Shown here in pieces: positions 3,817-44,008 of a stretch of 54,067 nt of DNA (positions are counted from its first letter, which is position 1; every line of letters starts with the position of its first letter). The notes under the pieces are model-generated. The model made no database searches. It had not been told where the DNA came from and saw only the letters and a list, made by a program, of their open reading frames with translations. Position numbers and translations under genes: made by a program. The stretch is taken from positions 1 to 54,067 of the forward strand of contig CALMLW010000153.1 in the NCBI GenBank assembly GCA_937868015.1, in the 5' to 3' direction. The stretch is from an uncultured Synergistaceae bacterium. GTDB taxonomy: Bacteria > Synergistota > Synergistia > Synergistales > Aminiphilaceae.

Positions 3817-3859
3817 ACGCCCCATCGTCGTCCACCGGAGCCCCGGGCCCGGCAGGGGG

Positions 3860-5254: not shown

Positions 5255-5270
5255 GCGGACATCCCTCCCG

Positions 5271-6056: not shown

Positions 6057-9000
6057 TCACCGTCGGGCCCGTTCGCAGATTTCTTCTTCCGTCAGCGGGG
6101 CCCGGTCCGGGTGATGCGAGAGGCACAGGGGCACGCGCACCCGGCGAGGCGCCCCCCGGGGCGAAGCGAATTGAAAGGCCCCGCTTTCCAGCGTGGCGAT
6201 CTCTGCGGCAACGCTCCCCCGATCTTCGAGGAAGGATCTGATCTGATCGATGATGCGGGGGGTATTCGCCCGACCACAGAACCAGGTGCTCATGTTCGAC
6301 AGGGATCCGCCGTCGAGGTCTTTAGGGTTTTGGGTGGCCACCACCAGCCCCAGACCGTACTTTCGCCCCTGGGCCGCGAGACGCTGCAACCCCTGCTTAC
6401 AGGCGCTGGTGCGCACCGAAGGGAGAAAGTCCTTGGCCTCGTCCAGCACGATGAGGCCATTCATGCGCCCCGGGGCCTGGATGGGGGGATGGCGACGCGC
6501 CCAGGTCAGGAGGGACAGGACCACGTGCCCCACCACGATCTGACGGTTCCGGTCCCCCGGAACCCCCACAAGGCTCACCACTGACACGGGGGTGCGCCCT
6601 CCTTCGAGGGGGCGTCCCCACAGGATCTCCGGATCGGCCAAGGGCCCTTCGCCGAAGAGGACGGGGGCGGTGAACATGGCCGATTGCAGGTTGTCCGCCG
6701 CCTCCCGGGCCAGGGCGGAAGCGGCGGAGATCTCCCCCGCCGTCCCGGGGGGAAGTTGGCGCAGAAACCCCAGAAAGGCGTGGATGTCCCCCCCCTCGCC
6801 CTGGGCAAAGGTCTTCACCGCCGCCGCCAGGACCCCCGCCATCCGCTTCGCCTTGGCTCCGCTCCCCACCACCGCCAGATCCGTCAGCATATCCACGGTC
6901 ACGGTGGTCGCCAGCTGGAAGGCGTCGGCATCGTCCCGCAGCGCGGGGAAATCGGGCAGCCCCCGCAGGGCGAAGGGGCGCCCCCGGTCGCATCCCGGAG
7001 TCCAGATCCGGACCTCCGCCGTCTCGAAATACCGCTCCGCCCGAAGATCGTCTCCGGGATCCCATCCCTTGGGGGGGTCGGGCCAGCGGTCCCCCAGCTG
7101 GGCCAAATCCCCAGCGCTGTCGAACACCACCGAGGGAATGCCCGCCTGCGCCGCCTCTTCCACGAGGCGCTTGAGGAGCACGGTCTTGCCGCTGCCGCTG
7201 CCAGCCAACACCACCACGTGCCGGGCAAGGTCATCTGCCGAAAGGCGGGCCCGGGTGGTCTCTCCGGGGTCCCCCAGGACCACGACGGGGGCGTCATCGG
7301 AAGAGTGATCTCTCGCCTCCGGAGGCTGTGACACGCCCTCTCCCGACCCTCCGTCGCCTCCGCCGATCATGAGCCGCAGAGGGGCCAGGGATTCCAGGGA
7401 ACTCAAGGGTTTGCGCTCCCGCAGCCAGACTTTAAAGGCCCCCTCTTCTTCCGGAGCGGAGGCTCCGGAGAGTTCCTCTCCCATCCTGACCACCGCCGCC
7501 AGGGTCCGGAGGTCGTCTTCGACGGGGGGCATGAAGACTCCCCCCGCCTTCAAGAAATCCTCCGTGATCCGAGGTCCCACCTTACCCCCCAGGGGGATCC
7601 CTTCGGGACGGAGGATCACCAACCGCCGCCGGGAGAGGTGCCGGGCGATGCCCGATTCGACCATCGCCGCCTGCAGGCGGTGGTTGTAGGCCGTATGATT
7701 TTCCCGGAGCAGCACCCGGAGGCACACATGCCACTCCGCATCGACTCCCCCGGCGCCCGTCACCATGCGCTTCCATCGCAGGTGAATCGCCGGGCAGGAG
7801 CGTCGCCCCCCCGAGGCGCTCTCCACCTCGAAGAAGGTATTTTCCGGGGTTTCGAGCTCCTCCACGCACCGACGACACCCTGCGGCAAAGAGCTCTCCCA
7901 GGGCCCCCTCGGCCCGGTCGTCGTCCTCCAGGTAGGGGGCGATGTCGACCGAGGCCCGGAGCTCCTCCAGGCGGCCATCCAGGGCCTGGAATCGCGACGA
8001 CACGGCGGGGAGGGCCTCCCGAAAGGGGTCCGTCTCCGGCGACCCTAGCTCGCGGACCTCGCCGTGGGCGAGGCAGGCATCCCGGTGGCGGTGGCAGGCG
8101 CGCAGGATCTCCCGGGGGGAGTAGGTCTCCACAGCGGAGAAAAACTCCGGGGCAAAGGGCCAGGTGGAGTAGGGGGGGGAGAAGCTCCCCCGGGCCGCGT
8201 CGAGCCTCCTTTCCACCAGGTCGCGGGCGATGGAACTCTCGGAGACGGGAAGGAGTCGATGGGGCTCCGTGTACCGGTCGGCAAACGAGGCGGGAACGAG
8301 CTTTTTCAGGTGGTCCCACGTATCGCCGAAGCAGGCCACCACCGTCAGGGTGGAGGAATTGAGGCGGTCCCGCAGGGCTCCAAAGCCCTTGCCGATGTCC
8401 CCCAGGACCAATTTAGCCGTTTTGCCCTCTTCGCGGTCGGGGGCGTGGCGTGCGGCGTCCAGCAGGGGAAAGCAGTTGTCGAGCTGGTCGAAGGCCATCA
8501 GAGTGGGCCCTCGAAAGCTCAACATCCTAAAGATCCCCTGGATGAGATGCCCCGGATCGGGCTCGCACTGGACAAGGCCAAGCTGCATGCCGTCGAAGTC
8601 GTCGACCTTACTCCCCTGGAGCCACGCGGAGGCGAGGCTCCAGATGCGGAGGCAGGCCTCGTTATTCATGCCCATCAGGGCCCGGATCACGTCCAACGAA
8701 GGATGGGTGAAGCGGGTCCGGTGGCGTTGCCACAGGGCGTCCACCATGACTTTCGTCGCCCCGCGAAGGTCGTTCTCGCCGAGGGTCGCCACCTCGGCGG
8801 CGTACTCCAGCCCCTGGGCAAGGGTGGCGGAGCGCCCCGAGATGTCTTCGGCCTCCACGAAGAGGGCGGCGATGACGTGGCGCAGCTGGCTCACTCCCTC
8901 CACCTCCCGGGTGAGGGAATCGGCGAGGCCGAGCAGAAGGGTATGGTCGAAGGAGCGCACGTCGGTCATGTCCACGTAGACGAAGGTCACCCCTCGCTCC

Positions 9001-10669: not shown

Positions 10670-10786
10670 GGACGCACTCAAAGGCAATTTAAGGCGATTC
10701 GGCTCGGCCGGGGCCCGCACCGGCCGAGCTCCGGCGAAGGCCCGATGGTAAGGAAAAGGGGCCCCGCCACGAAAGGAGAGAAGATC

Positions 10787-11314
10787 ATGGATGGAGTTTG
10801 GCTGGTCACTCGAGGGGGAGACAAGGGAGAAACCTCTTTGGGCGACGGAGAGCGGGTGCCCAAGGATTCCCCTCGGGTGGAGACCTATGGCACGCTGGAC
10901 GAGTGTCAGGCCGCCCTGGGGCTGGCCCGGAGCCTCTGCCCCTTCGATGACTTGGGGCAGGAGATCCTGCGCCTGGAAGATCACCTGGGCTCCGTCATGG
11001 GGTACTTTGCCGCCTACCCCGGCATGGAAGAGCCCGACGTCACTCTGCTGGACGGCGTGGTGGAAAGGGTTCGGGGCGTGGTGGGAGACTCCTTCTCCTT
11101 CGTGCGTCCCGGGGACTCCGCCCCGGGGGCGGCGCTACACCTGGCCCGGACCGTGGCCCGCCGGGCGGAGCGCTCCGCCGTGAAACTCTACCGCATGAAC
11201 CAGCTCTCCGACCAGGCCTATGCCTACATCAACCGCCTGTCCGACGCCATCTACGCCCTATCGCTCTGGGCCGACAAGGCCAGTAAGGACCGCACCGCCC
11301 CATCTTCAAAATAG
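10787..11314 (+). CDS. PduO-type ATP:cob(I)alamin adenosyltransferase
   Basis: Start at MDGVWLVTRGGDKGETSLGDGERVPKDSPRVETYGTLDE (AAAGGAGAG RBS 7 nt upstream). GDxGxT and RVETYGTLDE are signature PduO/MMAB motifs. Confidence 0.85.
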   Translation: MDGVWLVTRGGDKGETSLGDGERVPKDSPRVETYGTLDECQAALGLARSLCPFDDLGQEILRLEDHLGSVMGYFAAYPGMEEPDVTLLDGVVERVRGVVGDSFSFVRPGDSAPGAALHLARTVARRAERSAVKLYRMNQLSDQAYAYINRLSDAIYALSLWADKASKDRTAPSSK

Positions 11315-11318
11315 CTTC

Positions 11319-11370
11319 GTGCCCCTCCGACGAAGCCGGAGAGGGAGGAAGGCCTTCGGCGGAGGGGCAC
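11319..11370 (+). terminator. GC-rich stem-loop (11-bp stem GTGCCCCTCCG/CGGAGGGGCAC with structured loop) starting 5 nt after the adenosyltransferase stop; no U-tract
   Basis: Perfect 11-bp inverted repeat seen directly. The loop contains a second imperfect inverted repeat (GAAGCC...GGCCTTC). Confidence 0.45.
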
Positions 11371-11413
11371 GCCGTGGAACGAATGGGTCGTGGCATATTT
11401 TCCCCGGAAGCCC

Positions 11414-11419
11414 TATAAT
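11414..11419 (+). promoter_or_regulatory. perfect TATAAT -10 hexamer about 58 nt upstream of the GntR-family gene; -35 is weak
   Basis: cccTATAATgg in a 70 % GC context. Upstream hexamer (TGGCAT/GTGGCA) is a poor match to TTGACA. Confidence 0.35.
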
Positions 11420-11476
11420 GGTATGGAGCCTTCAGCATACAAAAAACCTGACATCGCCCGCGCGAGGAGGTCCCCC

Positions 11477-12151
11477 ATGCCAGACAACCCTCTGTCCCCG
11501 ACCCAGAACATCGACCTGCGACAGATCGTCTACGAGAAGATAAAGGAGGCCATCCTGGATGGCATCATCCACCCCGGGGAGCGCCTCTCCGAGGTGGATC
11601 TGGCCGAAAAGCTCACCGTGTCTCGGACGCCGGTACGGGAGGCCATTCGGCAGCTCGCGGAAACCAAGCTCGTGGCCCTCATCCCCCGCAAGGGGGCCTA
11701 CGTGGTGCTCCTGTCGGTGCAGGACGCCAAGGACCTCTACGAGCTCCGGAGCGCCCTGGAGTGCTGTGCCCTGACCCACCTCTGCCAGAATCCCCCCGCA
11801 GAAGCCCTGCAGGAGGTGCGGGCCGTCTTCGACGGCTTCAACGATTCCATGTCTCAATTCATCCACTACGATCGCCAATTCCACAGCATCATCCGAAGCG
11901 GATCGGGCAACAAGTTTCTTAATAGCGTTTTGGACAACGTGGTGGACCTCATCCAGCTCTGCCGTCGCTACGCCCTGGAGGTGGTCCCCCTGGCCACCTC
12001 GGCGGCGGAACACGTGGGAATCATCGATGCCATCCTCGCCCGGGACGTGGAAAAAAGCCAACGCCTCCTCCGGGATCACCTGCGGCGGGCCTCGGAATCC
12101 CTGGCCACCTACCTGGAAAAACACCCGGAGTTCTCCCGACAGACGCCCTGA
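11477..12151 (+). CDS. GntR-family transcriptional regulator (FadR/FCD C-terminal domain)
   Basis: ATG at 11477 with GAGGAGG RBS. N-terminal wHTH (LSEVDLAEKLTVSRTPVREAIRQL) followed by an FCD-type ligand domain. Confidence 0.8.
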   Translation: MPDNPLSPTQNIDLRQIVYEKIKEAILDGIIHPGERLSEVDLAEKLTVSRTPVREAIRQLAETKLVALIPRKGAYVVLLSVQDAKDLYELRSALECCALTHLCQNPPAEALQEVRAVFDGFNDSMSQFIHYDRQFHSIIRSGSGNKFLNSVLDNVVDLIQLCRRYALEVVPLATSAAEHVGIIDAILARDVEKSQRLLRDHLRRASESLATYLEKHPEFSRQTP

Positions 12152-17623: not shown

Positions 17624-18313
17624 CTATTTTCCCCCCACGAAAGATCCCAGGGTCAGGTCTACGGCGGACGCCGTGCCATGGTGTTCATAGCTCCACCGGG
17701 TGATCCCCACCCCGGGGACGAGCTCCATGGTGGTCGTGTCCGGGTTGGTCCGATAGACCACGACGAAGGCCTTACCCGAGGGCGATGTCCCGGGGATCGA
17801 CGGCACATCGCTCCGCTCTTCTTCCACGTACCACTGGTACATCGTGTCATCCCGGGGCTCGTCGCCCCCCCAGGCTTTGTCCTTTGCCAAGGGCAGGGCC
17901 ACCAGCAGATCCCCCTCGGTTCCGGTGGAGGGATCCTCCGCCAGAGACTTGGCAAAGGCCCGGGCCTCCAGCTCGCTGGCCTGGGGGAAGAGCTCCACAT
18001 GACTTGCCCGTTCCACCAGCACCGCATATCCGGGCTCCTGCCCCGGGGTGTAGCCGCTGGTCTCGGAAACCATGCCGCGCATCACGGCAACGGTGCTTCC
18101 GGAGGACGAAAAGACTTCGAGGGCCTCCATGTCCCAGGAAAGGGGGGCCACCTTGGGCCCTTCCGCCCCCTCCTCGGTCCACTGGGCCGTCCCTTCGTAG
18201 TGCCACCGCGCCCCCGAAGTCAGAGGGAAAACGCCCTCCTCCCCAAAGGCCATCCCCGCCCAAAAGATCCCCCATGCCGCCACCGCCGCAGCGCCCCAGC
18301 GTTTCCAACCCAT
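17624..18313 (-). CDS. hypothetical secreted protein
   Basis: Start taken at MGWKRWGAAAVAAWGIFWAGMAFGE (signal-peptide-like). The upstream 55 codons are Gly/Arg-rich with no RBS. Function unknown. Confidence 0.5.
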   Translation of the reverse strand: MGWKRWGAAAVAAWGIFWAGMAFGEEGVFPLTSGARWHYEGTAQWTEEGAEGPKVAPLSWDMEALEVFSSSGSTVAVMRGMVSETSGYTPGQEPGYAVLVERASHVELFPQASELEARAFAKSLAEDPSTGTEGDLLVALPLAKDKAWGGDEPRDDTMYQWYVEEERSDVPSIPGTSPSGKAFVVVYRTNPDTTTMELVPGVGITRWSYEHHGTASAVDLTLGSFVGGK

Positions 18314-18572
18314 CCTGGCCCCTCCTCCATTTCGGTCGTCTTCACCCATGACATCGTTTTCCCCCGCCTCCTTAGCGTCGGAAGGGACCTCCATGGTACG
18401 CCCCGGGCCCCACCTCTGGCAACCTCCCCCCAGAGCCTTTTCGCCGCCCCCGCCGTCGGATGGGGGGCGGGCCAAAAACTAAGGACCTAAGGCCCCGCCC
18501 CAAGTCTTCGAGCCCCAGCGGAGCCCCTCTCCGAGACGGGGAAGGAGGAGCCGTCGCCCCGAGGGGCCTTTG

Positions 18573-19802
18573 CTAGAAGGTCTCCCACCCGCGCTTGAGA
18601 GGGCGGGGTTCGGGCCGGGGCCCGGGAACGGGGCGGATCTCCGCCTCGCTCCACTCCCCCTTTAGGAGGCTCAGGGCGCTTCGAATTTCCTCCGGCAGCA
18701 CGCCCCCCTGCTCCATCTCAAGTTCCAGCACCACCCGACGGGAGGGCCCCTCCCGCCCCACCCGAAAGTCCCGGATGTCCCGCACCCCCCACAGGATTTC
18801 CGCCACGTCGTAGAGCCCCGGGGCCTCCGCCGTGCCGAGACGCCCCCGCACCTCCAGGCGGCGCAGGGGGGAGCCGCAGGGGCACGGGCCGGGGATCAGG
18901 CGCCCCTCGTCACCGGTGCGGTAGCGGATCAGGGGAAAGGTGGAGCGGGTCAGGGTGGTGATCACCACCTCGCCCCAGCTTCCGGATGGCACGGGGTGCC
19001 CCCCCGGGGACACCACCTCCGTGAGAACCTCCCCTTCCCGCAGGTGCCCCCCCTCGTGGGCGCCGCACTCCAGGGCCATGCCCCACCCCACCTCGGTGAG
19101 GCCGTAGTGGTCGAAGATCTCCCCGGGCCAAAGGCGCGCGATCCGACGGCGGAGCGCCGGGGGGAACATGTCCCCGCTCGCCAAAACCGCCTCGGGGACG
19201 TGGCGCGCGACGCGGGCCACCCGCAGGAGCGCTTCGGGCATGCCCACCACCACCCGGGGGTTGAAGGCGTCGATCCGGGCGGCGGTTTTTCGGGGATCTT
19301 CCCCCACGCCCCCCACCTCCACCGCACATCCGAGCTCCCCCAGGGCTTCCCGCAACAGGGCCCCCACGCTCCCGGGGCGATCTCCCCGGAAGAGCACCGT
19401 CACCCGGCTTCCCGGGGGCGTAAAGGCGGTGAGCCCCACGCGGAAAAACTCCCGGGTGGCGGCGAGGTCGGCGTAGGTGAAACAAAGCCTCTTGGGGGGA
19501 CCGGTGCTACCGGAGGTGGCGAGGGTCACGATGCGGGCCACCTCGCTCTGGGACACGGTGAGAAAATCCCCCTCCCGTCCCGCCAGATCGGAAGGATAGG
19601 TGAAGGGGAGCTCCTCCAGAGGAGCCCCCTCTCTTCCCCGGAGCCGGGAGGCGTAAAGGGGCGAATCCTGGGCCGCCCGGGCCACCAGGGCCCGGAGCCG
19701 CTCCTTCTGGAAGGCCTCCAGGGCGGCGCGCCCCGCCAGGGGGGCACCTTCCCCCAGACATCGGGCGCACCAGAGATCCAGGGGCGTGGAGCGAAGGCTC
19801 AT
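18573..19802 (-). CDS. PaaK / coenzyme F390 synthetase-like adenylate-forming ligase
   Basis: Start MSLRSTPLDLW at 19802 in ATGA overlap with the radical SAM gene stop. AMP-binding motif TSGSTGPPK and C-terminal PaaK-like domain. Confidence 0.8.
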   Translation of the reverse strand: MSLRSTPLDLWCARCLGEGAPLAGRAALEAFQKERLRALVARAAQDSPLYASRLRGREGAPLEELPFTYPSDLAGREGDFLTVSQSEVARIVTLATSGSTGPPKRLCFTYADLAATREFFRVGLTAFTPPGSRVTVLFRGDRPGSVGALLREALGELGCAVEVGGVGEDPRKTAARIDAFNPRVVVGMPEALLRVARVARHVPEAVLASGDMFPPALRRRIARLWPGEIFDHYGLTEVGWGMALECGAHEGGHLREGEVLTEVVSPGGHPVPSGSWGEVVITTLTRSTFPLIRYRTGDEGRLIPGPCPCGSPLRRLEVRGRLGTAEAPGLYDVAEILWGVRDIRDFRVGREGPSRRVVLELEMEQGGVLPEEIRSALSLLKGEWSEAEIRPVPGPRPEPRPLKRGWETF

Positions 19803-21121
19803 CCGGCCCCCCGGCGGTACAGCGGGGTGCCGTCCGCCGCCGTGAGATTCCAGGCACAAAAGGGCACCAGACGTCCGTCGGGGGCCGCAGCATGGATGCA
19901 GCACTCCCGGAGGCGCCGGAGGTCCAGGTTCCAGGCATCCTGAAAGGCCATGGCGCTGACGCTGAAAAGAACCCGCCCTTCCTGGCGGAGAAAGCGGTCC
20001 AGGGCGTCTCCAGCGCCGTCGTCATCCCTTTTTTCCAGGGAAGCTCCCCACCGTCGCCGGACGCTCTCCACCGCCCGGGATCTTCCCTCTTCGGCGGATT
20101 GGGATCGGCAGGCACAGGGCGTTCCTCCCAGGGGGACGAGACGGCCGGGGCCCTCCACCCGATACGTTCCTCGGCAGGAGCAGCGCTCGTGCTCGCACCC
20201 CGCGGGGTGAAAGTGCTCCCGGCGCACCATCCCTCCGGTCTGTTCTTCCAGCAACGCCAAGACCTCCGGCAGGGTTATCCGCCGGTGGTCCTGGGGCTCC
20301 AGGGAATAGCGGCCGAAAAAGCTCATGGGCTGCACGTGGACCCCCCGCACGGTGGGAAAGTGCCCCAGGGCGAAGCGCACCAGATCTCCCAGCTCGCCGT
20401 CGTTCACCCCCCGCACCAGGGTGGGGACGAGGACCACGCCGAGCTCCGCCCGGGCGCAGGCCTCCACGGCCCGCTCCCGGGGCTCCCGGAGATCTTTGTC
20501 CCGCAGCCTACGGGACGACCGCTCCGAAAGGCCGTCGAACTGCAAAAAGACCCACCCCAGCCCCGCATCCCGCAGGCGAGGCGCCAGAGCCGGATCTTCC
20601 GCCAGGGCCAGGCCGTTGGTGTTGAGCTGCACCGCCCCAAAGCCCCGCTTTCGAGCCCCCTCCACCAGCAGGGGAAGATCGGGGCGCAGGGTGGGCTCTC
20701 CTCCGGAGAGCTGGAGCACCGCCTCTCCCACCTGGGGACGCATTTTTTCCATCCGCTCCAGCAACAGCTCCAGCGGAGGATCGGGGTCTTCGGAGCCCGC
20801 ATCGGCGAAGCACACCGGGCACCGGAGGAGACACCGCGACGTCACGTCAAGCACCACGGCACAGGTTTTTTGTGCGTGAAAGGAGCAGAGACCGCACGCC
20901 CCGGGGCACGCGGGGTTTCGGCCGAGCTCCGGTGCCGGAGGGGCCTTGGGCCCCCGCCAGGCCTTCCAGGACTCCACGCCGCGCCAGACCACGCAGGAAA
21001 AATCCCCGTGCTCCGGACAGCTTTTTTTCATAAAAACCTCGTCCCCCTCGGGCACCAAAAGGGCCCCCACGGGGCGGAGGCACACCGGGCAAACGCTCTC
21101 GGTCTCGTCGGGGAGCCTCAC
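19799..21121 (-). CDS. radical SAM enzyme with N-terminal zinc-ribbon/extra Cys cluster
   Basis: CPVC...CPEHG ribbon, CPGACGLC, then canonical CLLRCPVC (Cx3Cx2C) with SGGEPTL SAM-binding motif. Cys-rich C-terminal region. GTG start in GTGA overlap with the upstream gene. Confidence 0.85.
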   Translation of the reverse strand: MRLPDETESVCPVCLRPVGALLVPEGDEVFMKKSCPEHGDFSCVVWRGVESWKAWRGPKAPPAPELGRNPACPGACGLCSFHAQKTCAVVLDVTSRCLLRCPVCFADAGSEDPDPPLELLLERMEKMRPQVGEAVLQLSGGEPTLRPDLPLLVEGARKRGFGAVQLNTNGLALAEDPALAPRLRDAGLGWVFLQFDGLSERSSRRLRDKDLREPRERAVEACARAELGVVLVPTLVRGVNDGELGDLVRFALGHFPTVRGVHVQPMSFFGRYSLEPQDHRRITLPEVLALLEEQTGGMVRREHFHPAGCEHERCSCRGTYRVEGPGRLVPLGGTPCACRSQSAEEGRSRAVESVRRRWGASLEKRDDDGAGDALDRFLRQEGRVLFSVSAMAFQDAWNLDLRRLRECCIHAAAPDGRLVPFCAWNLTAADGTPLYRRGAG

Positions 21122-21582
21122 GACGACGCCCCGAAGAGGTCAACGCCGTGGCTCTGGAGGATCTCCAACGTCCGCGTCAGGGTGTGTTGAACCAGGTGGA
21201 GACAGCGCAGGGGGTCGGGCTCCCGCACCGTTTCCCCCAGCAGATCGCCACACCGCACCCCCCCCGTGCCCCCCGTCTGGGTCTCTCGAAACCACTGATT
21301 CAGCTCTTCCGCCATGAGGCGCAACCGGGGATCCCGGAGATCTTCCGCCTCCCCCTTGCCGGCGTAGAGCCCCAGCAGACAGGCGGCCCCCGTGAGGGCA
21401 CCGCAGGTATTCCCCCGGGAGAAGGCCCCCTGACACAGGCCGTTCGCCGCCGCCACGAGATTTCGGTCTTCCTCCCCCCGGTACGCGAGCCCCGCGAGCA
21501 CCATGATCTGGGCGCAGCAGAAGCCCTCCCGGGCCCAGGCCACGATCCATTCCCGGAGATCGTTCTCCCCTTCCAACGTCAT
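21118..21582 (-). CDS. C_GCAxxG_C_C family protein (putative redox-active)
   Basis: Start at MTLEGENDL (ATG 21582, GGGAGGGG RBS; ATGA overlap with the methyltransferase stop). FCCAQ...CQGAF...CGALTGA...RCGDL pattern matches the C_GCAxxG_C_C family. Confidence 0.7.
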   Translation of the reverse strand: MTLEGENDLREWIVAWAREGFCCAQIMVLAGLAYRGEEDRNLVAAANGLCQGAFSRGNTCGALTGAACLLGLYAGKGEAEDLRDPRLRLMAEELNQWFRETQTGGTGGVRCGDLLGETVREPDPLRCLHLVQHTLTRTLEILQSHGVDLFGASS

Positions 21583-22268
21583 CCCCTCCCCGCATGTTGG
21601 CCTGACCCCGGGCCCGGAGAACTCGGTTTCCCGCTCACCCAAAGGGCGTATCCCCGCCGAAAGGGAGCGGTCCAGGCCTCGCAGGAAAGAATTCCCGCCC
21701 AAACCAGGCGGGCCGCCAGCTCGCGCACGGCGCGGGAGTGATCCTCCCGGTGCCTGAGAAGAAACCCCGCCCCGGCAAGGGATCGCTCCATCTCTTCCCC
21801 CCGCCGGGCCCCTCCGACGCACCCCGCACAAGGGCCCCCTCCGGGGGGAACGTTTTCGGGAAGAAAGAGATCTCCCACCCCCAGCACCCCTCCGGGACGG
21901 AGCACCCGAAAGAACTCTCCCAGAATGCTCCGGGGGTCGGCGCTCTGAGAGAGCACACACTCGCACACCACCCCGTCGAAGCTTCCGTCGTCAAAGGGCA
22001 GGGCCTCCAGAGTCCCCTCCACCACCGGGCCCCGCCGGGCGGCGCACCGCAGCCGCTCCGGGGACCGGTCCACCCCCACCGCCTGCCACCCTCCCCGCCC
22101 CAAAAGCTCCAGCATTCCCCCCCGGCCGCACCCCGCGTCCAACACCCGCCCCCCCGGGACAAAGGCGCAGAGCGCAAGCAACCGCCGGGACGTGCCCTCG
22201 CCGCCGGGGTGCAGGGTCTCTTCCAGTTCCTGGGGCCACAGGAGCTCCTCGGGAAAGGGGGATGTCAT
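21579..22268 (-). CDS. class I SAM-dependent methyltransferase
   Basis: Start MTSPFPEEL at 22268 (ATGA overlap with the zinc-ribbon gene stop). Motif I VLDAGCGRGG, motif post-I, LRPGGVL. Confidence 0.8.
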   Translation of the reverse strand: MTSPFPEELLWPQELEETLHPGGEGTSRRLLALCAFVPGGRVLDAGCGRGGMLELLGRGGWQAVGVDRSPERLRCAARRGPVVEGTLEALPFDDGSFDGVVCECVLSQSADPRSILGEFFRVLRPGGVLGVGDLFLPENVPPGGGPCAGCVGGARRGEEMERSLAGAGFLLRHREDHSRAVRELAARLVWAGILSCEAWTAPFRRGYALWVSGKPSSPGPGSGQHAGRG

Positions 22269-22477
22269 TTGTCTTCCAGAATGCGTTCCACGTCCCGCAT
22301 CTTTCCCCGGGCGAGGGATTCGGGCACCAGAATAAAACCGCATTTTCCGCAGACCGGAAGCTCAATCTCAAAGCGGCTCTCCAGATAGCAGGCCGCCACG
22401 CGCCGCATCTCCAGCGTGCCGCCGCAGGCGCACCGCCAGAGTCCTTCGTCCTGAAAGGAAAAAGACGCCTCGCTCAT
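22265..22477 (-). CDS. 70-aa zinc-ribbon protein (CxC...CxxC)
   Basis: WRCACGG...CGKCGF. Both ends in 4-nt overlaps with flanking genes, which argues that it is translated. Confidence 0.55.
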   Translation of the reverse strand: MSEASFSFQDEGLWRCACGGTLEMRRVAACYLESRFEIELPVCGKCGFILVPESLARGKMRDVERILEDK

Positions 22478-24672
22478 GGAATAACCTCCACGGTCATGCG
22501 GTGGCTCCAGGCGTTCAAAATCTCAAAGACCTCTCCCCGGAGACGGTACTCCACCCAAAAGGTCACCTCTCCCAGGCGCAGGCTCGCCAACGCCCGGCCG
22601 TCATCGGCCACGAGGCCCCTCCCCTTTTCCCGGCAGGCGGCCAGCACGCGCCGGAGATCGCTGTCCAAAATGCGCCGCTCCTCCAGCCCGCGCCGCATCT
22701 CGGGAGACACCCCGAGCTCCAGATCTTCCCAGGACTCCCGGGGAATCCCCGAAGCCCCCAAGAGACGCTCCCGCAACAAAATTCGGTTTTCCTGGCGCCC
22801 GGAAAACCCCGTGGCCGGTTCGGGGGGCATCTCGGGAAAAAGAAGCTCTAACACGTGCCACACCCCTTTCCCCAGGCCGGACAAACTCTCCCGGCACATG
22901 GCGCAGTAGGTGAGAAAATCCCGGGAACTCTCCCGGAGCCTCACCTCGGCCCCCCGGCGGGCCAGCTCGGGGGCCCCCTGGGACTGGAGCCCCCCGTATC
23001 CGCAACACTTCGTGCGCTCCCCTCCCATGGGGAGCTCTTCGTACTCCTGCCCCAGACGCTCCAGCACCTGGCGCAGGGCCCCCCGCCACGCCGGATCGTG
23101 CCGGGTGGTACAGGGATCGGAGATCGCCAAGGGCTCCCTTCGGGGAGCTCCGGGGGGAAGTTCCCCCTCCAAGAGCACCTCCCAAAGAGAGCGGCGGGGC
23201 ACCTCGGGGAGAAAGCGCCGGAACATGTCGGCGCAGGAGGGACAGGCCAGCACCACCGGAGGATTTCCCAGGGACAAGAGCGTGGCCCCCAGCCTTTCCA
23301 CCACCGGATCGAGGGCGTCCCGCCGGGCGGCCCACCACGCCGGAGCTCCGCAGCACCCCAAAAGCACCCCCAGGGCTCCGTCGAAACGCCGGTCAAGAAA
23401 GGCCGTCAGAGCCCCCGTCCGCTCCGGCAGGGCCCCCGCCAGCTGGCATCCGGGAAAGAACACCGCCCGGGTGCCCCGGGTGCCGGGGCGAAACCCCGAG
23501 GCCCGGGGAGATTGGGCCTGGGCCAGGTCCTGCAGAGCGAAGGCGTGGGTCGACGGGGGCATGATGCCCCGGGCCACCAGCTCCTCCCGGGCGCTCCGGC
23601 AGAGATCGGCCATGGAAAAATCGTGGGGGCAAAGGGTCTCGCAGAGGCCGCAGAGGGCGCAACTGTTTATCATGCCGTTGGCCTGATGACATCCGTGCAC
23701 CACGGCGAAGTTATTGTAGATCTCCCGGGCGTAGACCCGGGGGTACCGCCCGTGGGACGCGAGAAAGACGCATTCCCGGACGCAAACCCGACACTCGCAC
23801 TGGAGGCATCGTCGGGCCTCCTCCACGGGATCCTCTCGAGGGGGCTCCGTCACCACCCCCTCCAGCGAGGTAAACAGCCGGGTCTCGGTCTGAAACTCCT
23901 TCTCCCGCCCCGCCAGCAACGAGGCCCCCTGGAGAAAGCGGTCGATACTCTGGGCAGCCCTCTTGCCATCGGCGGCCTCCTCCACCGCCGACGGCCCCCC
24001 CGCACGGGGAGCTCCCCCCGCAAAGACCCCCGGGGTCCCCGTGGCGTGGGTCATGGGATCCCACTCCTCCGGCAGGGCCCCACGCCACCCGGGGTCGTCC
24101 CCGCCGCCGTACAGCGCTCCCCCCGGAGGCAGGGGGGGAAAAACGCCTCGCTCCCCTTCCCACCGCACCCCCAGATGCCGCAACAGGCGCCCCGCCTCTT
24201 CCCAGAGCTCGGGGGGCAGGGCACCCTCCCGGGCCCAGTGCCCCCCCAGGGGGCCTTCCGCCCCCCAAAGGGTCACCCGGTGCCCCTTTTTCGCCAGCTC
24301 CAGGGCACAGACCAAAGACGACAGCCCGCCCCCTAGCACCGTCACGGAGCTCCCCCGGGAGGGCAGGCGCATCGGCGGGGGCCCCGGCCGGGATCGGTCG
24401 AGGCAGGCCCGCTCCAGAGCCCCCAGGGTCACCGCCCCGCCCCTTTCGGCCCGGAGACAGCTCCTCTCGCAGGGGGCGTCGCAGAGCCGCCCCACCAGGT
24501 CGGGAAAGGGCATGGCCCGGGACAAGATCTTCCGGGCCTCGTCGAACTTCCCCAACCCCATGGCGCCGCAAAAGGCCCGCCCATCCACCTTCAGGGGGCA
24601 GGCCGCCTGACAGTAGGGGAGCTCCTCCTGCACACAGCGGCGCTCCAGCTCCTTGAGGCTTTCCTGTTCCAT
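22474..24672 (-). CDS. multidomain flavo-Fe-S oxidoreductase: 4Fe-4S + FAD/NAD(P) domain (GltD-like), 2x[4Fe-4S] ferredoxin, two CCG cysteine-rich domains (HdrD/GlpC-like)
   Basis: Start MEQESLKEL at 24672 with GGAGGTG RBS. GGGLSSLVCALELA (GxGxxG), CLQCECRVCVRECV / CALCGLCETLCP ferredoxin motifs, and FFPGCQ...CCGAP...PSCADM / CCGYGG CCG-type motifs. Confidence 0.85.
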   Translation of the reverse strand: MEQESLKELERRCVQEELPYCQAACPLKVDGRAFCGAMGLGKFDEARKILSRAMPFPDLVGRLCDAPCERSCLRAERGGAVTLGALERACLDRSRPGPPPMRLPSRGSSVTVLGGGLSSLVCALELAKKGHRVTLWGAEGPLGGHWAREGALPPELWEEAGRLLRHLGVRWEGERGVFPPLPPGGALYGGGDDPGWRGALPEEWDPMTHATGTPGVFAGGAPRAGGPSAVEEAADGKRAAQSIDRFLQGASLLAGREKEFQTETRLFTSLEGVVTEPPREDPVEEARRCLQCECRVCVRECVFLASHGRYPRVYAREIYNNFAVVHGCHQANGMINSCALCGLCETLCPHDFSMADLCRSAREELVARGIMPPSTHAFALQDLAQAQSPRASGFRPGTRGTRAVFFPGCQLAGALPERTGALTAFLDRRFDGALGVLLGCCGAPAWWAARRDALDPVVERLGATLLSLGNPPVVLACPSCADMFRRFLPEVPRRSLWEVLLEGELPPGAPRREPLAISDPCTTRHDPAWRGALRQVLERLGQEYEELPMGGERTKCCGYGGLQSQGAPELARRGAEVRLRESSRDFLTYCAMCRESLSGLGKGVWHVLELLFPEMPPEPATGFSGRQENRILLRERLLGASGIPRESWEDLELGVSPEMRRGLEERRILDSDLRRVLAACREKGRGLVADDGRALASLRLGEVTFWVEYRLRGEVFEILNAWSHRMTVEVIP

Positions 24673-24959
24673 GGCCCACCTCCGAGATGGCAATCCACGC
24701 CCCCCGTAGGGAGAAAGGTCGCTTTCAAGAAAATTTTTTCGCATCGAAAGAGGCGCCGCCGAAGACGGCCCTGGAGGGCGTTCGTCGGAAACAGCGGAAG
24801 CGGAAAGGCCGAGGAGCGTTCCCTGCCGCTCCGGCGTCCAAAGTTGTCCCTCTCGGTATGCGCTTCGGGAAAAAACCTACCCCTTCTGCCCTCGCCGGTC
24901 CACCGGAAAAATGCCGTGGGCGAAGATGACGGAAGGCAGAATTGTTCTCCTCCGGCAAA

Positions 24960-25001
24960 AACTTTGGGGCCCGAAGCGAGACGCCTCCGGGCCCCAAAGT
25001 T
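24960..25001 (-). terminator. terminator hairpin for the aldehyde oxidoreductase gene: perfect 14-bp stem (AACTTTGGGGCCCG/CGGGCCCCAAAGTT), 14-nt loop, partial U-tract on the minus strand
   Basis: Begins 7 nt downstream of the stop. On the minus strand the 3' arm runs into TTTTTGCC. Confidence 0.55.
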
Positions 25002-25007
25002 GGAACG

Positions 25008-27737
25008 CTAGACCCGCTCGCCCTTCAACCCCGCGAGGATCTTTTCCGGCAGGGCCGGCAGGGCGTGCACCCGCACGCCGCAGGCCTGGTAGATGGCGTT
25101 GCCGATGGCCGCGTGGGGGCTGGACAGCGGCAGCTCTCCCACCCCCGCCGCTCCGAAGGGACCGAACTCCCGGGGGTACCCCTCGAAGTAGACGATCTCC
25201 ATGTCGTCGGGGATGTCTTTGGCGAAGGGGAAGCCCGCCCCCGTCATGGAGGAGTGCTTTTTCAGGTCTTCAAAGTCCTCGGTGAGGGCCAGACCGATGC
25301 CCTGGGCTATGCCGCCGTAGATCTGGCCGTCCGTCACCAGGCGGTTATTCACCTTGCCGATGTCCGCCATGAGGGTCATCTTCTCCACCGTGGTCTTGCC
25401 GGTGTCCAGATTCACCGCCACCTCCGCCATGAAGACCCCGTACATGTACACCACGAAGGGCTTTCCCTGCCCCTTGTCGTCGCAGGCCACCCCGGGGACG
25501 GAGAATTTCCCCACGTACTTCGTGGGAACGCCGTCCGCCGTGGCTTCCGCGTAGGTGCGATAGGTACCGTCGGCCTTCTTGAGCCCCGCGAGCATCTCCT
25601 GGCAGGCCACCCGGATGGCGCCCCCCGTCATGACCTGCTGCCGGGAGCCCCCCGAGGGCCCCGAATTGGGGGTCTTCGACGTGTCGGGCCAGGTGAAACG
25701 CAGGCGCTCCGGGGCCACCTTCATGGGACGCAGGGCCTCGTGAGCCGTGCCGATGGCCCCCATGTCCGCCCCCTGGCCGTGGTCCTCCCACGCCGTGGCG
25801 ATAGTGATGGTATCATCTTGGTTGAGGATGGCCCAGGCCTCGGAGCCGTCGGGGCCGTCCAGGCCGCAGCCGTAGCACCCCAGGGAGAGCCCCACGCCCT
25901 TTTTCACCCTGTCTGTGGATTCCCGCCGGGCCTTATCCTTGGCGGCCTCGTAGCGGGGCTTCAGGGCCTCCAGCATCTCGGGATAGCTGAAGACCTCCGG
26001 AGCCTGGCCGTTGGGGTTCGTCGCCCCGGGGCGATAGCAGTTCTTGTACCGGATCTCCCACGGATCCATGCCCAACTTTTCCGCCAGCTCGTCCATCAGG
26101 GACTCGGAGGAGTACAGGGACTGGGGGGATCCGTAGGCCCGAAAGGCCGATCCCCAGGCATGGTTCGTGCACACCGTGCGCCCCACCCCGCGGATGTGGG
26201 GAATGTCGTATCCCGCCCCCATGAACTGGGCCCCCCGCAGGGTCAACAGGTCTCCGAACTCCGAATAGGGGCCGTGGTCCACGCTGTAGTCCGTCTCCAT
26301 GGCCAAAAGCTTTCCCGCCTTGTCTGCGGCGAAGCGCATGTTCACAAAGAACGGCGACCGCTTCCCCGTGTAGGTCATGTGCTGGAAGTAGTTGTAGCGC
26401 AGGAAGCAGGGCCGCCCCGTGGCCAGGGCCGCCGCTCCCACCAGGGCCTCCATGGTGGGGCTGAACTTATACCCGAAGGTGCCCCCCATGGGGTTGGAGA
26501 CCAGGGCGATCTTGTCGGGCTCCACCCCCAGGCCGGGGGCGATCATGTAGAGATGGAGATGGGCCCCGATGGTCTTGGAGTGGATGATCAGCTTGCCGTC
26601 ATCGTCCATATAGGCAAACCCCACGTCGGGCTCCACGGTGAGGTGGGGCTGGCGCCCCACGTAGAAGTCGTCTTCCACCACCACATCGGCCTTTTCGAAG
26701 ATGGGCCCCGTGGGATCGCCCTTTTCCAGGTTCTGAATGTAGTAGACGTTGGGCGTGCCGGGATGGATCTCCATGGCGTCCTCCGCCATGGCGGCGGGGG
26801 CGCTCATGTAGGCGGGCAAAAGCTCCAGGTCGACCCGGACCTTTTCCGCCGCCGCGCAGGCGTTCTCGTAGGTGTCCGCACAGACGATGGCGATGGCGTC
26901 GCCGAACTGGAAGACCTTCTCGTCGCAGAGGATGGGCCGATCCCAGCCGTCCCCCTTGTTCGTGGGGAAGGTGATGAGGCCGGTGATGCGGTTTTTCCCC
27001 TTCACATCCCGGGCGGTGACCACCTTGTACACCCCGGGCATCTTCTCCGCCTCGGAGACATCCACGCCCTTGATGTTCGCGTGGCTCACCGTGGCCTGCA
27101 CCAGGGCGAGCTGGAGGGCATTCGTCGGGAGCTTGAGCCCCAGGTCCGCCCCGTAGTCCAGCGTCCCCGTGGCCTTGCCCACCGCTGTGGGGCGGGGATA
27201 GGCGCTCCCCCAGATCCGCCCGTCCGGGGGCATTTTGAAGTCGAGGGATTCCTCCGGAGCCTCGCCCCGGAGCACCTGGGCGGCGGCCATGACCGCGTCC
27301 ACCTGGGGAATGTATCCCGTGCACCGGCAGGCATTCCGGTGCTGGTGGAACCACTCCCGCACCTCTTCCCGGGTGGGGTTCGGGTTATGGTCCAGCAGGA
27401 CCTTGGAAGAGACGATGAAACCGGGAGAGCAGAAGCCGCACTGGGTAGCTCCGGAAGAAACCCAGGCCCGCTGCAGGGGATGGAGCTCGTCGGGGGTGCC
27501 GATCCCTTCGATGGTGGTGATCTGGTCTCCGTCCTCCACTCGCTTCATCTTGTAAACGCACGACCGCACCAGCTTGCCGTTCAGGATGACGTTGCAGGCC
27601 CCGCACTCCCCCGTGCCACACCCCACCTTGGTCCCCGTGAGCCCCAGCTGCCCCCGGAGGACGTCCGCCAGGGACGATTCCCCATCCACAATCAGGTTTC
27701 TCTCCACGCCGTTCACGAAAAATCTCTTCTGAATCAC
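25008..27737 (-). CDS. mop: molybdopterin-dependent aldehyde oxidoreductase, single-chain (2x[2Fe-2S] + Mo-MCD domains), Desulfovibrio MOP-type
   Basis: 909 aa. N-terminal CGTGECGAC plus CGFCSPG [2Fe-2S] motifs, then a xanthine-oxidase-family Mo domain. From memory, near-collinear with D. gigas MOP (907 aa). GTG start. Confidence 0.9.
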   Translation of the reverse strand: MIQKRFFVNGVERNLIVDGESSLADVLRGQLGLTGTKVGCGTGECGACNVILNGKLVRSCVYKMKRVEDGDQITTIEGIGTPDELHPLQRAWVSSGATQCGFCSPGFIVSSKVLLDHNPNPTREEVREWFHQHRNACRCTGYIPQVDAVMAAAQVLRGEAPEESLDFKMPPDGRIWGSAYPRPTAVGKATGTLDYGADLGLKLPTNALQLALVQATVSHANIKGVDVSEAEKMPGVYKVVTARDVKGKNRITGLITFPTNKGDGWDRPILCDEKVFQFGDAIAIVCADTYENACAAAEKVRVDLELLPAYMSAPAAMAEDAMEIHPGTPNVYYIQNLEKGDPTGPIFEKADVVVEDDFYVGRQPHLTVEPDVGFAYMDDDGKLIIHSKTIGAHLHLYMIAPGLGVEPDKIALVSNPMGGTFGYKFSPTMEALVGAAALATGRPCFLRYNYFQHMTYTGKRSPFFVNMRFAADKAGKLLAMETDYSVDHGPYSEFGDLLTLRGAQFMGAGYDIPHIRGVGRTVCTNHAWGSAFRAYGSPQSLYSSESLMDELAEKLGMDPWEIRYKNCYRPGATNPNGQAPEVFSYPEMLEALKPRYEAAKDKARRESTDRVKKGVGLSLGCYGCGLDGPDGSEAWAILNQDDTITIATAWEDHGQGADMGAIGTAHEALRPMKVAPERLRFTWPDTSKTPNSGPSGGSRQQVMTGGAIRVACQEMLAGLKKADGTYRTYAEATADGVPTKYVGKFSVPGVACDDKGQGKPFVVYMYGVFMAEVAVNLDTGKTTVEKMTLMADIGKVNNRLVTDGQIYGGIAQGIGLALTEDFEDLKKHSSMTGAGFPFAKDIPDDMEIVYFEGYPREFGPFGAAGVGELPLSSPHAAIGNAIYQACGVRVHALPALPEKILAGLKGERV

Positions 27738-28227
27738 CCGTCCTCACCCCTCTCCCTCTCCTGCCGGAAGCGGATCGCCCCGGCCCTCGCCCCCATCTCC
27801 GCCACAACGCCACGGGGGCAGCCCCCACAAAGAGGGCCGCCCCCGATAGGTACGGACGATCTTCCCCTCCTTGCCAAACGCGGGAGGCATGCCCGTTTCC
27901 GGGCATACCCTAAGCGGCGGCACGCCGTGAGGGGAATTCCCTGGTAGGCCGTGACGCTCGGAAGGTCCCACTATGACGTTTCGTCCCGCCCGAGACGATG
28001 CCCGGGGCCCAAAGGCCCTTCAAGAAAGCCCTGGCATCGCCACAGAGCGGCAAAACTTTTGATCACAGTATCATAAAAAAGCACCCCCTGTCAATTGCCC
28101 CTCACGGCCCCAACGCCGCCCCCCCCCGCCAAACTTCACGAAGGGGGGGCGAAGGGGGGGCGGTGAACCGAAAGCATTTCAAACTCCCGATGATTTTTGT
28201 CATATCGGAACTTATCGGGGAAATAAA

Positions 28228-35178: not shown

Positions 35179-35216
35179 CGTCGGCCATCCGGCACCTCCC
35201 GAGAGCCTTGCCCTTG

Positions 35217-35251
35217 GGGCCCCCGGAAGCCTTATCCGCTTCCGGGGGCCC
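35217..35251 (+). terminator. 14-bp GC-rich stem-loop (GGGCCCCCGGAAGC cttatcc GCTTCCGGGGGCCC) 40 nt after the chemoreceptor gene stop; no U-tract
   Basis: Near-perfect inverted repeat seen directly. Confidence 0.5.
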
Positions 35252-35414
35252 TTCGTTGCGGCACCACCGCACGACTTTCCGGGCCTTCGTCCCCGGGGAG
35301 CGCTTCGAGGCAAACCCCGGAGGGCCTCCAGAGGAGCGGTCCAAAGCCCAGGCCTCCAGGTCCTTCTCGGGGAGGCCCCGCATCCCGAGCCACCACCGCA
35401 AAGGACTCCCCCCC

Positions 35415-35443
35415 TTGACATCCCTCCACGCGAGTGCTACAAA
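35415..35443 (+). promoter_or_regulatory. candidate sigma70 promoter TTGACA-17-TACAAA for cbiMQO
   Basis: ccccTTGACAtccctccacgcgagtgcTACAAAaaatg about 40 nt upstream of the cbiM ATG. Confidence 0.45.
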
Positions 35444-35483
35444 AAATGCTATTCGTAACACCACTTTCGAAGGAGCGATGGAC

Positions 35484-36512: not shown

Positions 36513-37309
36513 CCTCCCTCGAACACCGGCTCCGCGCCGCCTCCCACACCCTGGATTTTGGGCGGAGGCTTTCGCCGATCCACGACCTCGATCCCCGGAC
36601 AAAAATCGCCGTCACCGCCCTTTTTCTCGTGGTGACGGCGTCCTTTCCCTCCTCTGCTCCGGGGGACCTGGCCCCCCTGCTCTTTTTTCCCTGCGTCGTC
36701 GGCGCCCTGGCGGGAATTCCCGGCAGGGCGCTTCTGGGCCGGGCCCTGGTCCTCTCCCCCCTGGTTCTTTTGGTGGGGGTGGCGGAGCCCCTGTGGCACC
36801 GCACGCCGGTTATCATCGCCCCCGGCATCGCCCTCGCCGCCGGTTGGTTTTCCCTGCTGGGCATCGTGATGAAATTTGTTCTTTCGGTGAGCGGGGCGCT
36901 GCTGTTGCTTCGCACCACCCCCCTGGACGACCTCTGCTCCGGCCTCGTCCGGCTGAAGGTTCCCCGGGTGCTGGCCCTCCAGATCCTGCTCCTGGTGCGC
37001 TATCTTTTTCTCCTCGGGGACGAGGCCCTCCGCACGCTCCGGGCCCACGGGGCCCGCACCGGCGGACAATCCCCCTCCCTCGCCCTAGCGGGGCCCCTTC
37101 TGGGGAGCTTGCTGCTACGCACGCTGGCCCGGGGAGAACGCATCTCCCGGGCCATGGCGGCCCGGGAGTTCGGCATGGGGGCTCTGGAAGGCGCCGAAGC
37201 GCCTCTGGATCGCCGGAATCTGCTCTTTCTGGCGGGCTGGGGGGTCTTTTTTCTTCTGGTGCGCCTGAGGCCCCTCTCCCGCCTGGCGGAGATCGGGGGA
37301 CTTTCGTGA
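36509..37309 (+). CDS. cbiQ: ECF transporter transmembrane (T) component CbiQ
   Basis: GTG start in GTGA overlap with the cbiM stop. Hydrophobic CbiQ-like protein with C-terminal ARG-rich cytoplasmic motif (LRAHGARTGG). Confidence 0.75.
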   Translation: MTSLEHRLRAASHTLDFGRRLSPIHDLDPRTKIAVTALFLVVTASFPSSAPGDLAPLLFFPCVVGALAGIPGRALLGRALVLSPLVLLVGVAEPLWHRTPVIIAPGIALAAGWFSLLGIVMKFVLSVSGALLLLRTTPLDDLCSGLVRLKVPRVLALQILLLVRYLFLLGDEALRTLRAHGARTGGQSPSLALAGPLLGSLLLRTLARGERISRAMAAREFGMGALEGAEAPLDRRNLLFLAGWGVFFLLVRLRPLSRLAEIGGLS

Positions 37310-43994: not shown

Positions 43995-44008
43995 GGGGGG
44001 CCCTCCTT

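Follow-up and report, generated by a model that had tools for sequence, protein, structure and literature searches.

A six-gene module linked to pterin-dependent aldehyde oxidoreductases in a Synergistaceae genome, and the possible role of its small zinc-ribbon protein

The window analysed here is the whole 54,067-nt contig CALMLW010000153.1 (assembly GCA_937868015.1; G+C content ~67%) of an uncultured Synergistaceae bacterium. Six minus-strand open reading frames (ORFs), running from position 24672 down to 18573, are labelled G1 to G6; the fifth encodes the radical S-adenosylmethionine (SAM) enzyme TrsS. The six genes are best explained as an accessory module within the operon of a pterin-dependent aldehyde oxidoreductase (AOR). 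In genome comparisons the module shows a near-obligate linkage to an AOR, which is a molybdopterin cytosine dinucleotide (MCD)-dependent enzyme (MOP) in most lineages and a tungsten AOR in a sister clade, and the functional tie to pterin-dependent AORs of two unrelated folds is solid. An earlier note on this DNA, made from the letters alone, had taken the unit to consist of the six genes. However, the MOP gene directly upstream and a molybdenum cofactor (Moco) riboswitch belong to it too, and both lie outside the coordinates that the note covered.

Linkage of the module to aldehyde oxidoreductases

A scan with a TrsS alignment, using one genome per GTDB species, yielded at least 581 species. 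The best 80 TrsS loci were analysed with tblastn, and 60 of them had enough flanking sequence. MOP is present in 54 of these 60 well-flanked species loci and all seven genes in 48, and 45 loci are colinear on one strand; the window has the matching order, MOP-G1-G2-G3-G4-TrsS-G6, also on one strand. The synteny check suggested in the earlier note came out in its favour: the same order and strand recur in most of ~160 loci from other genomes and metagenomes, which rules out a chance juxtaposition of the six genes. Moreover, the module was found in all three look-ups that were started from MOP (Oceanidesulfovibrio, Desulfonema and Fretibacterium). The taxa with the module include Desulfobacterota, Synergistota, Bacillota (Acetobacterium, Sporomusa, Desulfosporosinus, Clostridium), Chloroflexota, Acidobacteriota and Nitrospirota, and MOP is better conserved than the module (57-84% against 26-65% identity). 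The MOP gene is tied to a module of radical SAM enzyme, ligase and putative carrier in hundreds of species from several phyla, and tungsten AORs share the core of this module.

The leading, seventh gene of the unit (25008-27737, minus strand) encodes the MCD-dependent MOP of 909 aa. The protein scores 1637.5 bits against NF045668 (cut-off 1100) and is a full-length orthologue of the Desulfovibrio gigas AOR (1SIJ/1VLB; 1506 bits, residues 1-905); the score against the D. desulfuricans enzyme MOD (1DGJ) is 1377 bits. Its closest named relatives come from Synergistales and Thermovirgaceae, with 83-85% identity. A flavin domain is absent from MOP, which carries two [2Fe-2S] clusters.

Five TrsS sequences form a separate clade, and a metagenome scan with these five added ~38 loci. 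The TrsS proteins of this sister clade are 65-72% identical to each other and ~50% identical to other TrsS. Their loci lack both MOP and the flavo-Fe-S-CCG body of G1, and the neighbouring gene encodes a 656-aa tungsten-type aldehyde:ferredoxin oxidoreductase (AFOR) with AFOR_N and AFOR_C domains; this enzyme, with 75-86% identity among at least 17 metagenome loci, is often accompanied by MoeA. What the sister clade keeps of G1 is its last ~85 residues, the domain G1C, either as a free small ORF or fused to G2; Geobacter metallireducens GS-15 has the tungsten AOR together with the G1C-G2 arrangement. Two loci of the clade also encode an enzyme of the DMSO-reductase family. G3 is missing in ~ten sister-clade loci, and G3 and G4 are both missing in four; the minimal set of G1C, G2, TrsS and G6 is seen in L087, L090, L104 and L117. 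In view of these losses, the minimal core of the module consists of G1C, G2, TrsS and G6. The body of G1 tracks the flavin-domain-free MOP.

Gene organization

All six genes lie on the minus strand: G1 (24672-22474, 732 aa, with an ATG start and GGAGGTG ahead of it), G2 (22477-22265, 70 aa), G3 (22268-21579, 229 aa), G4 (21582-21118, 154 aa), G5 or TrsS (21121-19799, 440 aa, GTG start) and G6 (19802-18573, 409 aa). By reading of the minus strand and the ORF table, the five consecutive 4-nt stop-start overlaps described in the earlier note are all found where it had placed them, as ATGA at 22477-22474, 22268-22265, 21582-21579 and 19802-19799 and as GTGA at 21121-21118. Independent gene calls on identical public contigs of metagenome-assembled genomes (MAGs; GCA_035421105.1 and others) gave the same six products, and the start codons of G1-G6 in the window are backed by full-length profile matches, such as that of G1 residues 2-729 to profile positions 1-758. 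That the six genes are real and co-transcribed is solid. The fixed stoichiometry that had been read into the overlaps is unwarranted, however, because such overlaps point to co-translation or coupling and not to equal amounts. Exact 4-nt overlaps are not universal in other loci, where the junctions are still tight, with a median gap of -4 to 0 nt and 79-97% of module junctions at 20 nt or less; in this measurement the choice of start codons favoured small gaps, and the starts in other loci are approximate.

Families of the six proteins

Comparisons with Pfam, NCBIfam and the PDB support all six family assignments made from the letters alone: flavo-Fe-S CCG protein, Zn ribbon, class I methyltransferase, C_GCAxxG_C_C protein, radical SAM enzyme with additional Cys sites near its N-terminus, and PaaK-like ligase. 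The profile searches that had been proposed as a check showed that all six proteins pass the cut-offs of curated NCBIfam equivalogs. These are the equivalogs of the DVU_1553-1559 neighbourhood, so that the view that the set cannot be mapped to anything known has to be given up. Its separation from F430, heme d1, Ahb, PQQ and mycofactocin was correct, and membership in those pathways is excluded by NirJ, Ahb, PqqE and MftC models scoring far below their NCBIfam cut-offs.

G1 belongs to NF045663 ('diclust_near_Sec'; 810.8 bits, cut-off 530). It is composed of an NfnB/GltD-like module with two [4Fe-4S] clusters and FAD, a ferredoxin domain with two [4Fe-4S] clusters, two CCG domains of the HdrD/HdrB-like type, and the C-terminal G1C. 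The Pfam matches are Fer4_20, NAD_binding_8, Fer4_17 (residues 288-353) and CCG (404-484); a second CCG-like stretch, residues 512-580, matches GlcF and TfrB, and the PDB relatives are of the NfnB and GltD types.

G3 is a class I SAM methyltransferase (NF045667, 'DVU_1556 family methyltransferase'; 191.5 bits, cut-off 155). The nearest named relatives are of the ArsM type; however, an assignment as ArsM was rejected, with 63 bits against a cut-off of 263 for NF008823 and one well-conserved core Cys (C104, conserved in 97%) in place of an arsenic-binding set. G4 matches NF045669 ('DVU_1555 family C-GCAxxG-C-C protein'; 148.4 bits, cut-off 103), with C23, C60, C111 and C127 conserved in 97-100%, and a search for a solved structural relative of G4 found none. 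G6 matches NF045666 ('DVU_1553 family AMP-dependent CoA ligase'; 352.1 bits, cut-off 300) and conserves RYRTGD, C246, C307xC309 and K403. The kinship of G6 with PaaK holds only at the level of fold and family, as seen from 93 bits against the PaaK structure 4R1L and 78 bits against TIGR02155, for which the cut-off is 646.3, and G6 as a true PaaK was rejected.

TrsS and its relation to Tes

G5 passes NF045646 ('radical SAM (seleno)protein TrsS'; 558.3 bits, cut-off 490) and is the Cys form of the protein; its closest named relatives are from Aminiphilus and Synergistaceae, with 53% identity. TrsS is listed in a 2026 review, which cites Haft & Tolstoy 2025 (mSystems 10:e0141724). The protein is a relative of the tetraether lipid synthase Tes/GDGT-MAS (MJ0619; 7TOL, 7TOM), and the score of TrsS against 7TOL is 277 bits. 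In GDGT-MAS the ligands are a rubredoxin site C9X2C12X20C33X2H36, an N-terminal [4Fe-4S] cluster bound by C73/C77/C80 and a His, the radical SAM motif CX3CX2C, and a C-terminal [4Fe-4S] cluster with a labile Met439 (PMC9433317). All four metallocofactor sites are kept in TrsS, with C11/C14/C35/H38, C72/C76/C79/H82, C97/C101/C104 and M391/C407/C422 as invariant counterparts, wherein M391 corresponds to Met439.

In contrast to Tes, TrsS has an unaligned segment at residues 308-385, opposite 7TOL 332-453 (the lipid-pocket region) and ~40 residues shorter, which lies between the core and the C-terminal cluster domain and bears the conserved C314 and C336. In addition, a Cys or selenocysteine (Sec) at position 87 is invariant in TrsS and specific to it; this position lies ten residues ahead of the radical SAM motif and is occupied by Ile or Thr in Tes. 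The genomic context of TrsS is an oxidoreductase operon and not lipid synthesis. TrsS as a true synthase of tetraether or membrane-spanning lipids was therefore rejected: it scores 331.7 bits against the Tes model NF045702, under the cut-off of 450, it has no lipid region, and it stands in the wrong context.

In a Fretibacterium sp. MAG (locus L172, GCA_030529485.1) an in-frame TGA at 6069-6071 aligns with TrsS Cys87, and a hairpin begins 11 nt after it (-18.1 kcal/mol, z -1.7). This TGA is likely to be a selenocysteine site of TrsS, judged from the alignment and the hairpin. No in-frame TGA at Cys columns was found in the module proteins over the ~160 loci; L172 came from a MOP-based look-up, outside that search. 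The L172 locus lacks the methyltransferase G3. Apart from the module, in-frame TGA codons were also seen in L035, L085, L086 and L118, at the Cys of a molybdopterin oxidoreductase motif ('HCAR*HAPTV', tblastn). These genes resemble selenocysteine enzymes of the formate dehydrogenase type and are unrelated to the module.

G2 and the G1C domain

G2 is a Zn ribbon of the NF045645 family ('DVU_1557 family redox protein', DUF7479; 84.2 bits, cut-off 60) in which C16, C18, C43 and C46 are invariant. Its C-terminus is conserved to an unusual degree: the terminal residue is Lys in 123 of 123 orthologues, 119 of them end in LEDK, and the distance from the second CxxC to the end is 24 residues in 120. 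A search with HMMER, run without filters over 1.84 billion representative proteins, gave 132 matches, 104 with an EDK end; the remaining apparent members of the family end in E-x-K, and one in EDR. Whatever the length of the protein, the G2 domain is always at the extreme C-terminus, both in the free form of 60-90 aa and in fusions, namely G1C-G2 (146-231 aa), CCG pair-G2 (450-471 aa) and whole G1-G2 (782-895 aa). G2 is thus a small protein with an invariant free terminal residue, as expected in a carrier system. The earlier note had considered a precursor or a carrier peptide; the invariant free C-terminus argues for the carrier, and a cleaved precursor of a ribosomally made and post-translationally modified peptide (RiPP) finds no support.

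The partner domain G1C, ~85 aa at the C-terminus of G1 (~22477-22740, minus strand), is free-standing or fused to G2 in the tungsten-AOR clade and is a putative docking domain. The structural model is that of a Geobacter homologue and not of the window proteins, and it may weakly be suggested that G1C and G2 are a docking pair of toxin-antitoxin ancestry. As a working toxin-antitoxin system the pair was rejected, given its fusion to redox enzymes and its fixed position in the operon.

Control elements and neighbouring genes

The unit is arranged in the order promoter, Moco riboswitch, MOP, hairpin, G1-G6 and terminator. The Moco riboswitch aptamer (RF01055) lies in the MOP leader at 27851-27975 on the minus strand and covers the full model, positions 1-135 (Infernal 67.3 bits, gathering score 36, E 7.8e-15). 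RF01055 was also found upstream of MOP in another Synergistaceae locus (L008:3192-3314), and two tandem copies precede the tungsten AOR of G. metallireducens (L167:5357-5476 and 5584-5703); six loci from Desulfobacterota and Acetobacterium yielded no copy. A sigma-70-like promoter candidate, TTGACA-16-GATACT (28067-28094, minus strand; 10 of 12 matches), which lies upstream of both riboswitch and MOP, came from a consensus scan and is a candidate by pattern match alone.

Just 3' of the MOP stop codon, at 24957-25001 on the minus strand, there is a 13-bp perfect hairpin, ACTTTGGGGCCCG ... CGGGCCCCAAAGT, followed by TTTTT, which is possibly an attenuator between MOP and the module. It was read directly, as the consensus and hairpin scan passed over the 14-nt loop. 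A gap between MOP and G1 is the rule in other loci as well, with a median of ~100 nt. A second, terminator-like hairpin, found by the scan ~70 nt after the G6 stop codon (18484-18506, minus strand), has a 10-bp stem followed by TTAGTTTTT and is probably the 3' end of the unit in the window genome. Right after it comes a 283-aa ORF (17624-18475, minus strand) without a Pfam or NCBIfam match, which was seen only in near-identical contigs; this ORF and a gene for a HAD hydrolase, both downstream, are not conserved in other loci.

Elsewhere in the window, a 636-aa ORF (42249-44159, minus strand) is 28% identical over ~400 residues to the sister-clade tungsten AOR by tblastn. Therefore, the window genome encodes an AFOR-type enzyme ~20 kb from the module and not adjacent to it. 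Genes for a PduO-type adenosyltransferase, CbiM/CbiQ cobalt transport and a GntR-type regulator are located at 10745-12151 and 35208-37309 on the plus strand, and other loci gave no sign of a link between the module and these cobalamin-related and GntR genes. In other genomes, two loci types stand out by their MOP copy number: L086 has two tandem MOP genes (265-2990 and 3246-5970) before a single module, and Desulfosporosinus fructosivorans (L041, L050) has two complete, diverged sets of MOP and module at separate loci in one genome. Such loci could help to decide whether the module proteins are enzyme-specific partners.

A possible carrier system and its alternatives

The mechanism that we favour, tentatively and by analogy, takes G2 as a carrier that is loaded by G6, tailored by TrsS and redox-cycled by G1. 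G2 would be held by the putatively RelE/MqsR-like G1C as MqsA is held by MqsR (3HI2). With ATP, G6 would activate a carboxylate and join it to the terminal Lys of G2, or it might activate the terminus itself. TrsS, by radical chemistry of the Tes type with a cluster-sulfur-bound intermediate and with Cys/Sec87, would then functionalize an unactivated carbon of the tethered group and form a C-S or C-C bond, and G3 and G4 may be tailoring or sulfur-handling helpers that are dispensable in some lineages. The finished arm would be a redox-active prosthetic group, probably a thiol/disulfide, which is cycled by the CCG site of G1, and the Fe-S/FAD chain of G1 would exchange electrons with the two [2Fe-2S] clusters of the flavin-domain-free MOP. 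The overall logic would be that of the lipoyl arm or of DsrC/DsrK, in the service of aldehyde oxidation. Such a model accounts for the invariant free terminus, the CCG fusions, the minimal core and the MOP-specific body of G1. The apparent absence of both G1C and G2 from the locus L012 also counts in its favour. The C. ljungdahlii tandem sets comprise four proteins each (MOP, G1, G2 and G4), duplication of the other module genes being unstated (PMC5640608); these sets would suit partners in stoichiometric amounts whose modifying enzymes are shared. The full claim, that G2 is a new kind of carrier whose arm on the C-terminal Lys is built by a ligase of the PaaK type together with a radical SAM enzyme of the Tes family, is recycled by a CCG protein and is a partner of molybdenum and tungsten AORs, is doubtful as it stands. 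If it is true, the arm would serve molybdenum and tungsten AORs of anaerobes as their physiological partner for electrons or acyl groups, in a 'lipoyl-like' system for aldehyde oxidation.

Several points weigh against a carrier of this kind. The CCG protein is absent from the tungsten-AOR clade, and therefore a CCG-cycled arm cannot be the whole story. Ligases of the ANL/PaaK type usually form CoA thioesters of small acids. The D. gigas MOP is active once purified alone, with an ordinary MCD cofactor, and the module is therefore not needed for catalysis in vitro. The arm on G2 is deduced from the invariance of its sequence, so its modification is putative, and the conserved tail of G2 could be only a binding epitope. 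One locus, L012, seems to be without G2-G4. In addition, the loci compared are the best TrsS matches with 10 kb on either side, and gene presence in them is by tblastn. Finally, the XdhC-like, MocA-like and MoeA genes that lie after or within the module suit a role in cofactor maturation equally well.

This leads to the main rival to the G2 arm, in which the module would mature or repair the pterin active site of the AOR, by supplying a labile ligand of molybdenum or tungsten (sulfido or selenido) or by finishing or inserting the cofactor. The proteins would work with an XdhC-like chaperone, a MocA-like cytidylyltransferase and MoeA; G2 and G1C would be a delivery adaptor, and G1 would pass electrons to TrsS. 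We consider this rather unlikely, but it is a serious competitor in view of the gene neighbourhood. By ORF clustering, G6 is followed in loci of the MOP type, in 45-47 of the 60 loci, by genes for an XdhC-like protein (NF045664, named 'XdhC family aldehyde oxidoreductase maturation factor'), a MocA-like nucleoside triphosphate (NTP) transferase with an HD domain (NF045665, the DVU_1551 NTP-transferase) and a histidine phosphatase; the XdhC-like and NF045665 genes are present in 47. XdhC-like and/or MocA-like genes even lie inside the module, between G4 and TrsS, in Sporomusa, L040, L153 and others. A MoaB/MoeA-like gene stands ahead of MOP in about half of the loci, with ModBC genes occasionally present, and MoeA also goes with the tungsten-AOR variant. 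The Moco riboswitch in the leader, and the succession of a structural gene, a hairpin and packed helper genes, which is typical of an enzyme-plus-maturase operon, point the same way, as do the selenoprotein forms of several module members in some species and the service to two unrelated enzyme folds that share the pterin cofactor and aldehyde chemistry. However, no known step of Moco synthesis requires a radical SAM enzyme of the Tes type, a ligase of the PaaK type or a methyltransferase, and the MCD of MOP and the tungsten bis-pterin of AFOR are finished by different routes. High-resolution structures of D. gigas MOP are not known to contain an exotic cofactor. A role in maturation also leaves the invariant free LEDK end of G2 and the CCG fusions unexplained, and no XdhC-like, MocA-like or phosphatase gene was found by tblastn within the 54-kb window, though these may lie elsewhere in the genome.

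Less likely than either the G2 carrier or active-site maturation is a soluble small-molecule pathway, which we regard as improbable. Here the AOR would make an acid, G6 would convert it to an acyl-AMP or acyl-CoA, and TrsS, G3 and G4 would modify the free metabolite, for breakdown or for a cofactor or lipid-like product, while G1 disposes of electrons. The phenylacetate-CoA ligases are the nearest relatives of G6, both partner enzymes oxidize aldehydes to acids, an aldehyde dehydrogenase is encoded nearby in L072, L093 and L124, and the Tes relatives of TrsS act on hydrocarbon chains. According to transcriptome data, growth on syngas or H2/CO2, conditions under which acids are reduced, induces the tandem sets of C. 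ljungdahlii (PMC5640608). On the other hand, the lipid-binding segment of Tes is unaligned in TrsS, which has a shorter Cys-rich stretch instead, the universally retained G1C-G2 pair and the invariant end of G2 would have no role, and no transporter, thioesterase or further catabolic enzyme is conserved in the neighbourhood.

The weakest alternative, also less likely than the first two and in our view very improbable, is a RiPP system in which C-terminal residues of a G2 precursor are cross-linked by the radical SAM enzyme and cut out as a peptide product or cofactor, as with mycofactocin and PQQ: a small Cys-containing protein does adjoin the radical SAM enzyme, its invariant C-terminal motif recalls the precursors MftA and PqqA, and it is bound by, or fused to, a domain of the recognition type, G1C, but no peptidase or exporter is conserved in the neighbourhood, G2 is a folded Zn ribbon with conservation along the full protein, for which reason it was also rejected as a hypervariable RiPP core, its place as the C-terminal domain of redox enzymes of 450-895 aa favours a permanent arm over an excised peptide, and TrsS is not a maturase of the SPASM/twitch type (34.3 bits against 265 for MftC and 43.9 against 381 for PqqE). 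That the oxidoreductase serves TrsS only as a donor of low-potential electrons was considered and not adopted, as it would require stoichiometric aldehyde. The remaining probability belongs to an explanation outside those considered.

Comparison with known systems

The module is already catalogued in NCBIfam and was partly described in C. ljungdahlii. The closest counterpart is the DVU_1553-1559 neighbourhood of D. vulgaris Hildenborough (NF045663-NF045669, NF045645 and NF045646), for which all six proteins and MOP pass the cut-offs in the same order. The window differs in lacking the XdhC-like (NF045664), NTP-transferase (NF045665) and phosphatase genes, which come after G6 in most genomes, and in having a host from Synergistota and a Moco riboswitch in the operon. 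No experimental function of this neighbourhood was found in the literature, and a search by D. vulgaris locus tag returned only tables naming DVU_1559 as Aor. In C. ljungdahlii, the genes CLJU_RS11830-11815 and 11870-11850 were described as units of a MOP-type AOR, a FAD/CCG fusion, a four-Cys protein and a C_GCAxxG_C_C protein (Sci Rep 2017, PMC5640608). That paper differs from the present account in leaving the radical SAM enzyme, ligase and methyltransferase unmentioned, and it proposed electron transfer to a membrane carrier with no protein experiments (PMC5640608). As far as checked, the new observations are the sister clade with a tungsten AOR, the fusions of G1C with G2, the invariant end LEDK of G2, the C87/Sec site of TrsS and the link to the riboswitch, and the module bears on acid-to-aldehyde reduction in syngas fermentation.

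Among CCG proteins of the HdrD/HdrB type, G1 is alike in having a ferredoxin-type dicluster domain with a CCG pair; its disulfide reductase activity is putative. DsrC is a small protein with an invariant C-terminal arm that is served by a CCG protein. The carrier-arm systems, that is, lipoyl (LplA/LipA/E3), DsrC/DsrK and LysW, resemble the module in combining a small protein whose attachment site is a conserved terminus or lysine, an ATP-dependent ligase, a radical SAM enzyme with an auxiliary cluster and a flavin/CCG disulfide reductase. LysW, for example, is a small amino-group carrier with intermediates on its C-terminal residue (PMC12998189). The comparison is an analogy only: there is no sequence kinship, G2 ends in Lys and has no Cys in its tail, and its ligase is of the ANL type and not LplA or ATP-grasp.

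The D. gigas MOP (1VLB, 1SIJ) was the first xanthine-oxidase-family structure to be solved and is a textbook molybdoenzyme, known as a stand-alone homodimer that donates electrons to flavodoxin. A linked six-gene module is absent from this classical picture, and the module implies an extra layer of MOP biology, be it a partner arm or the maturation of the active site.

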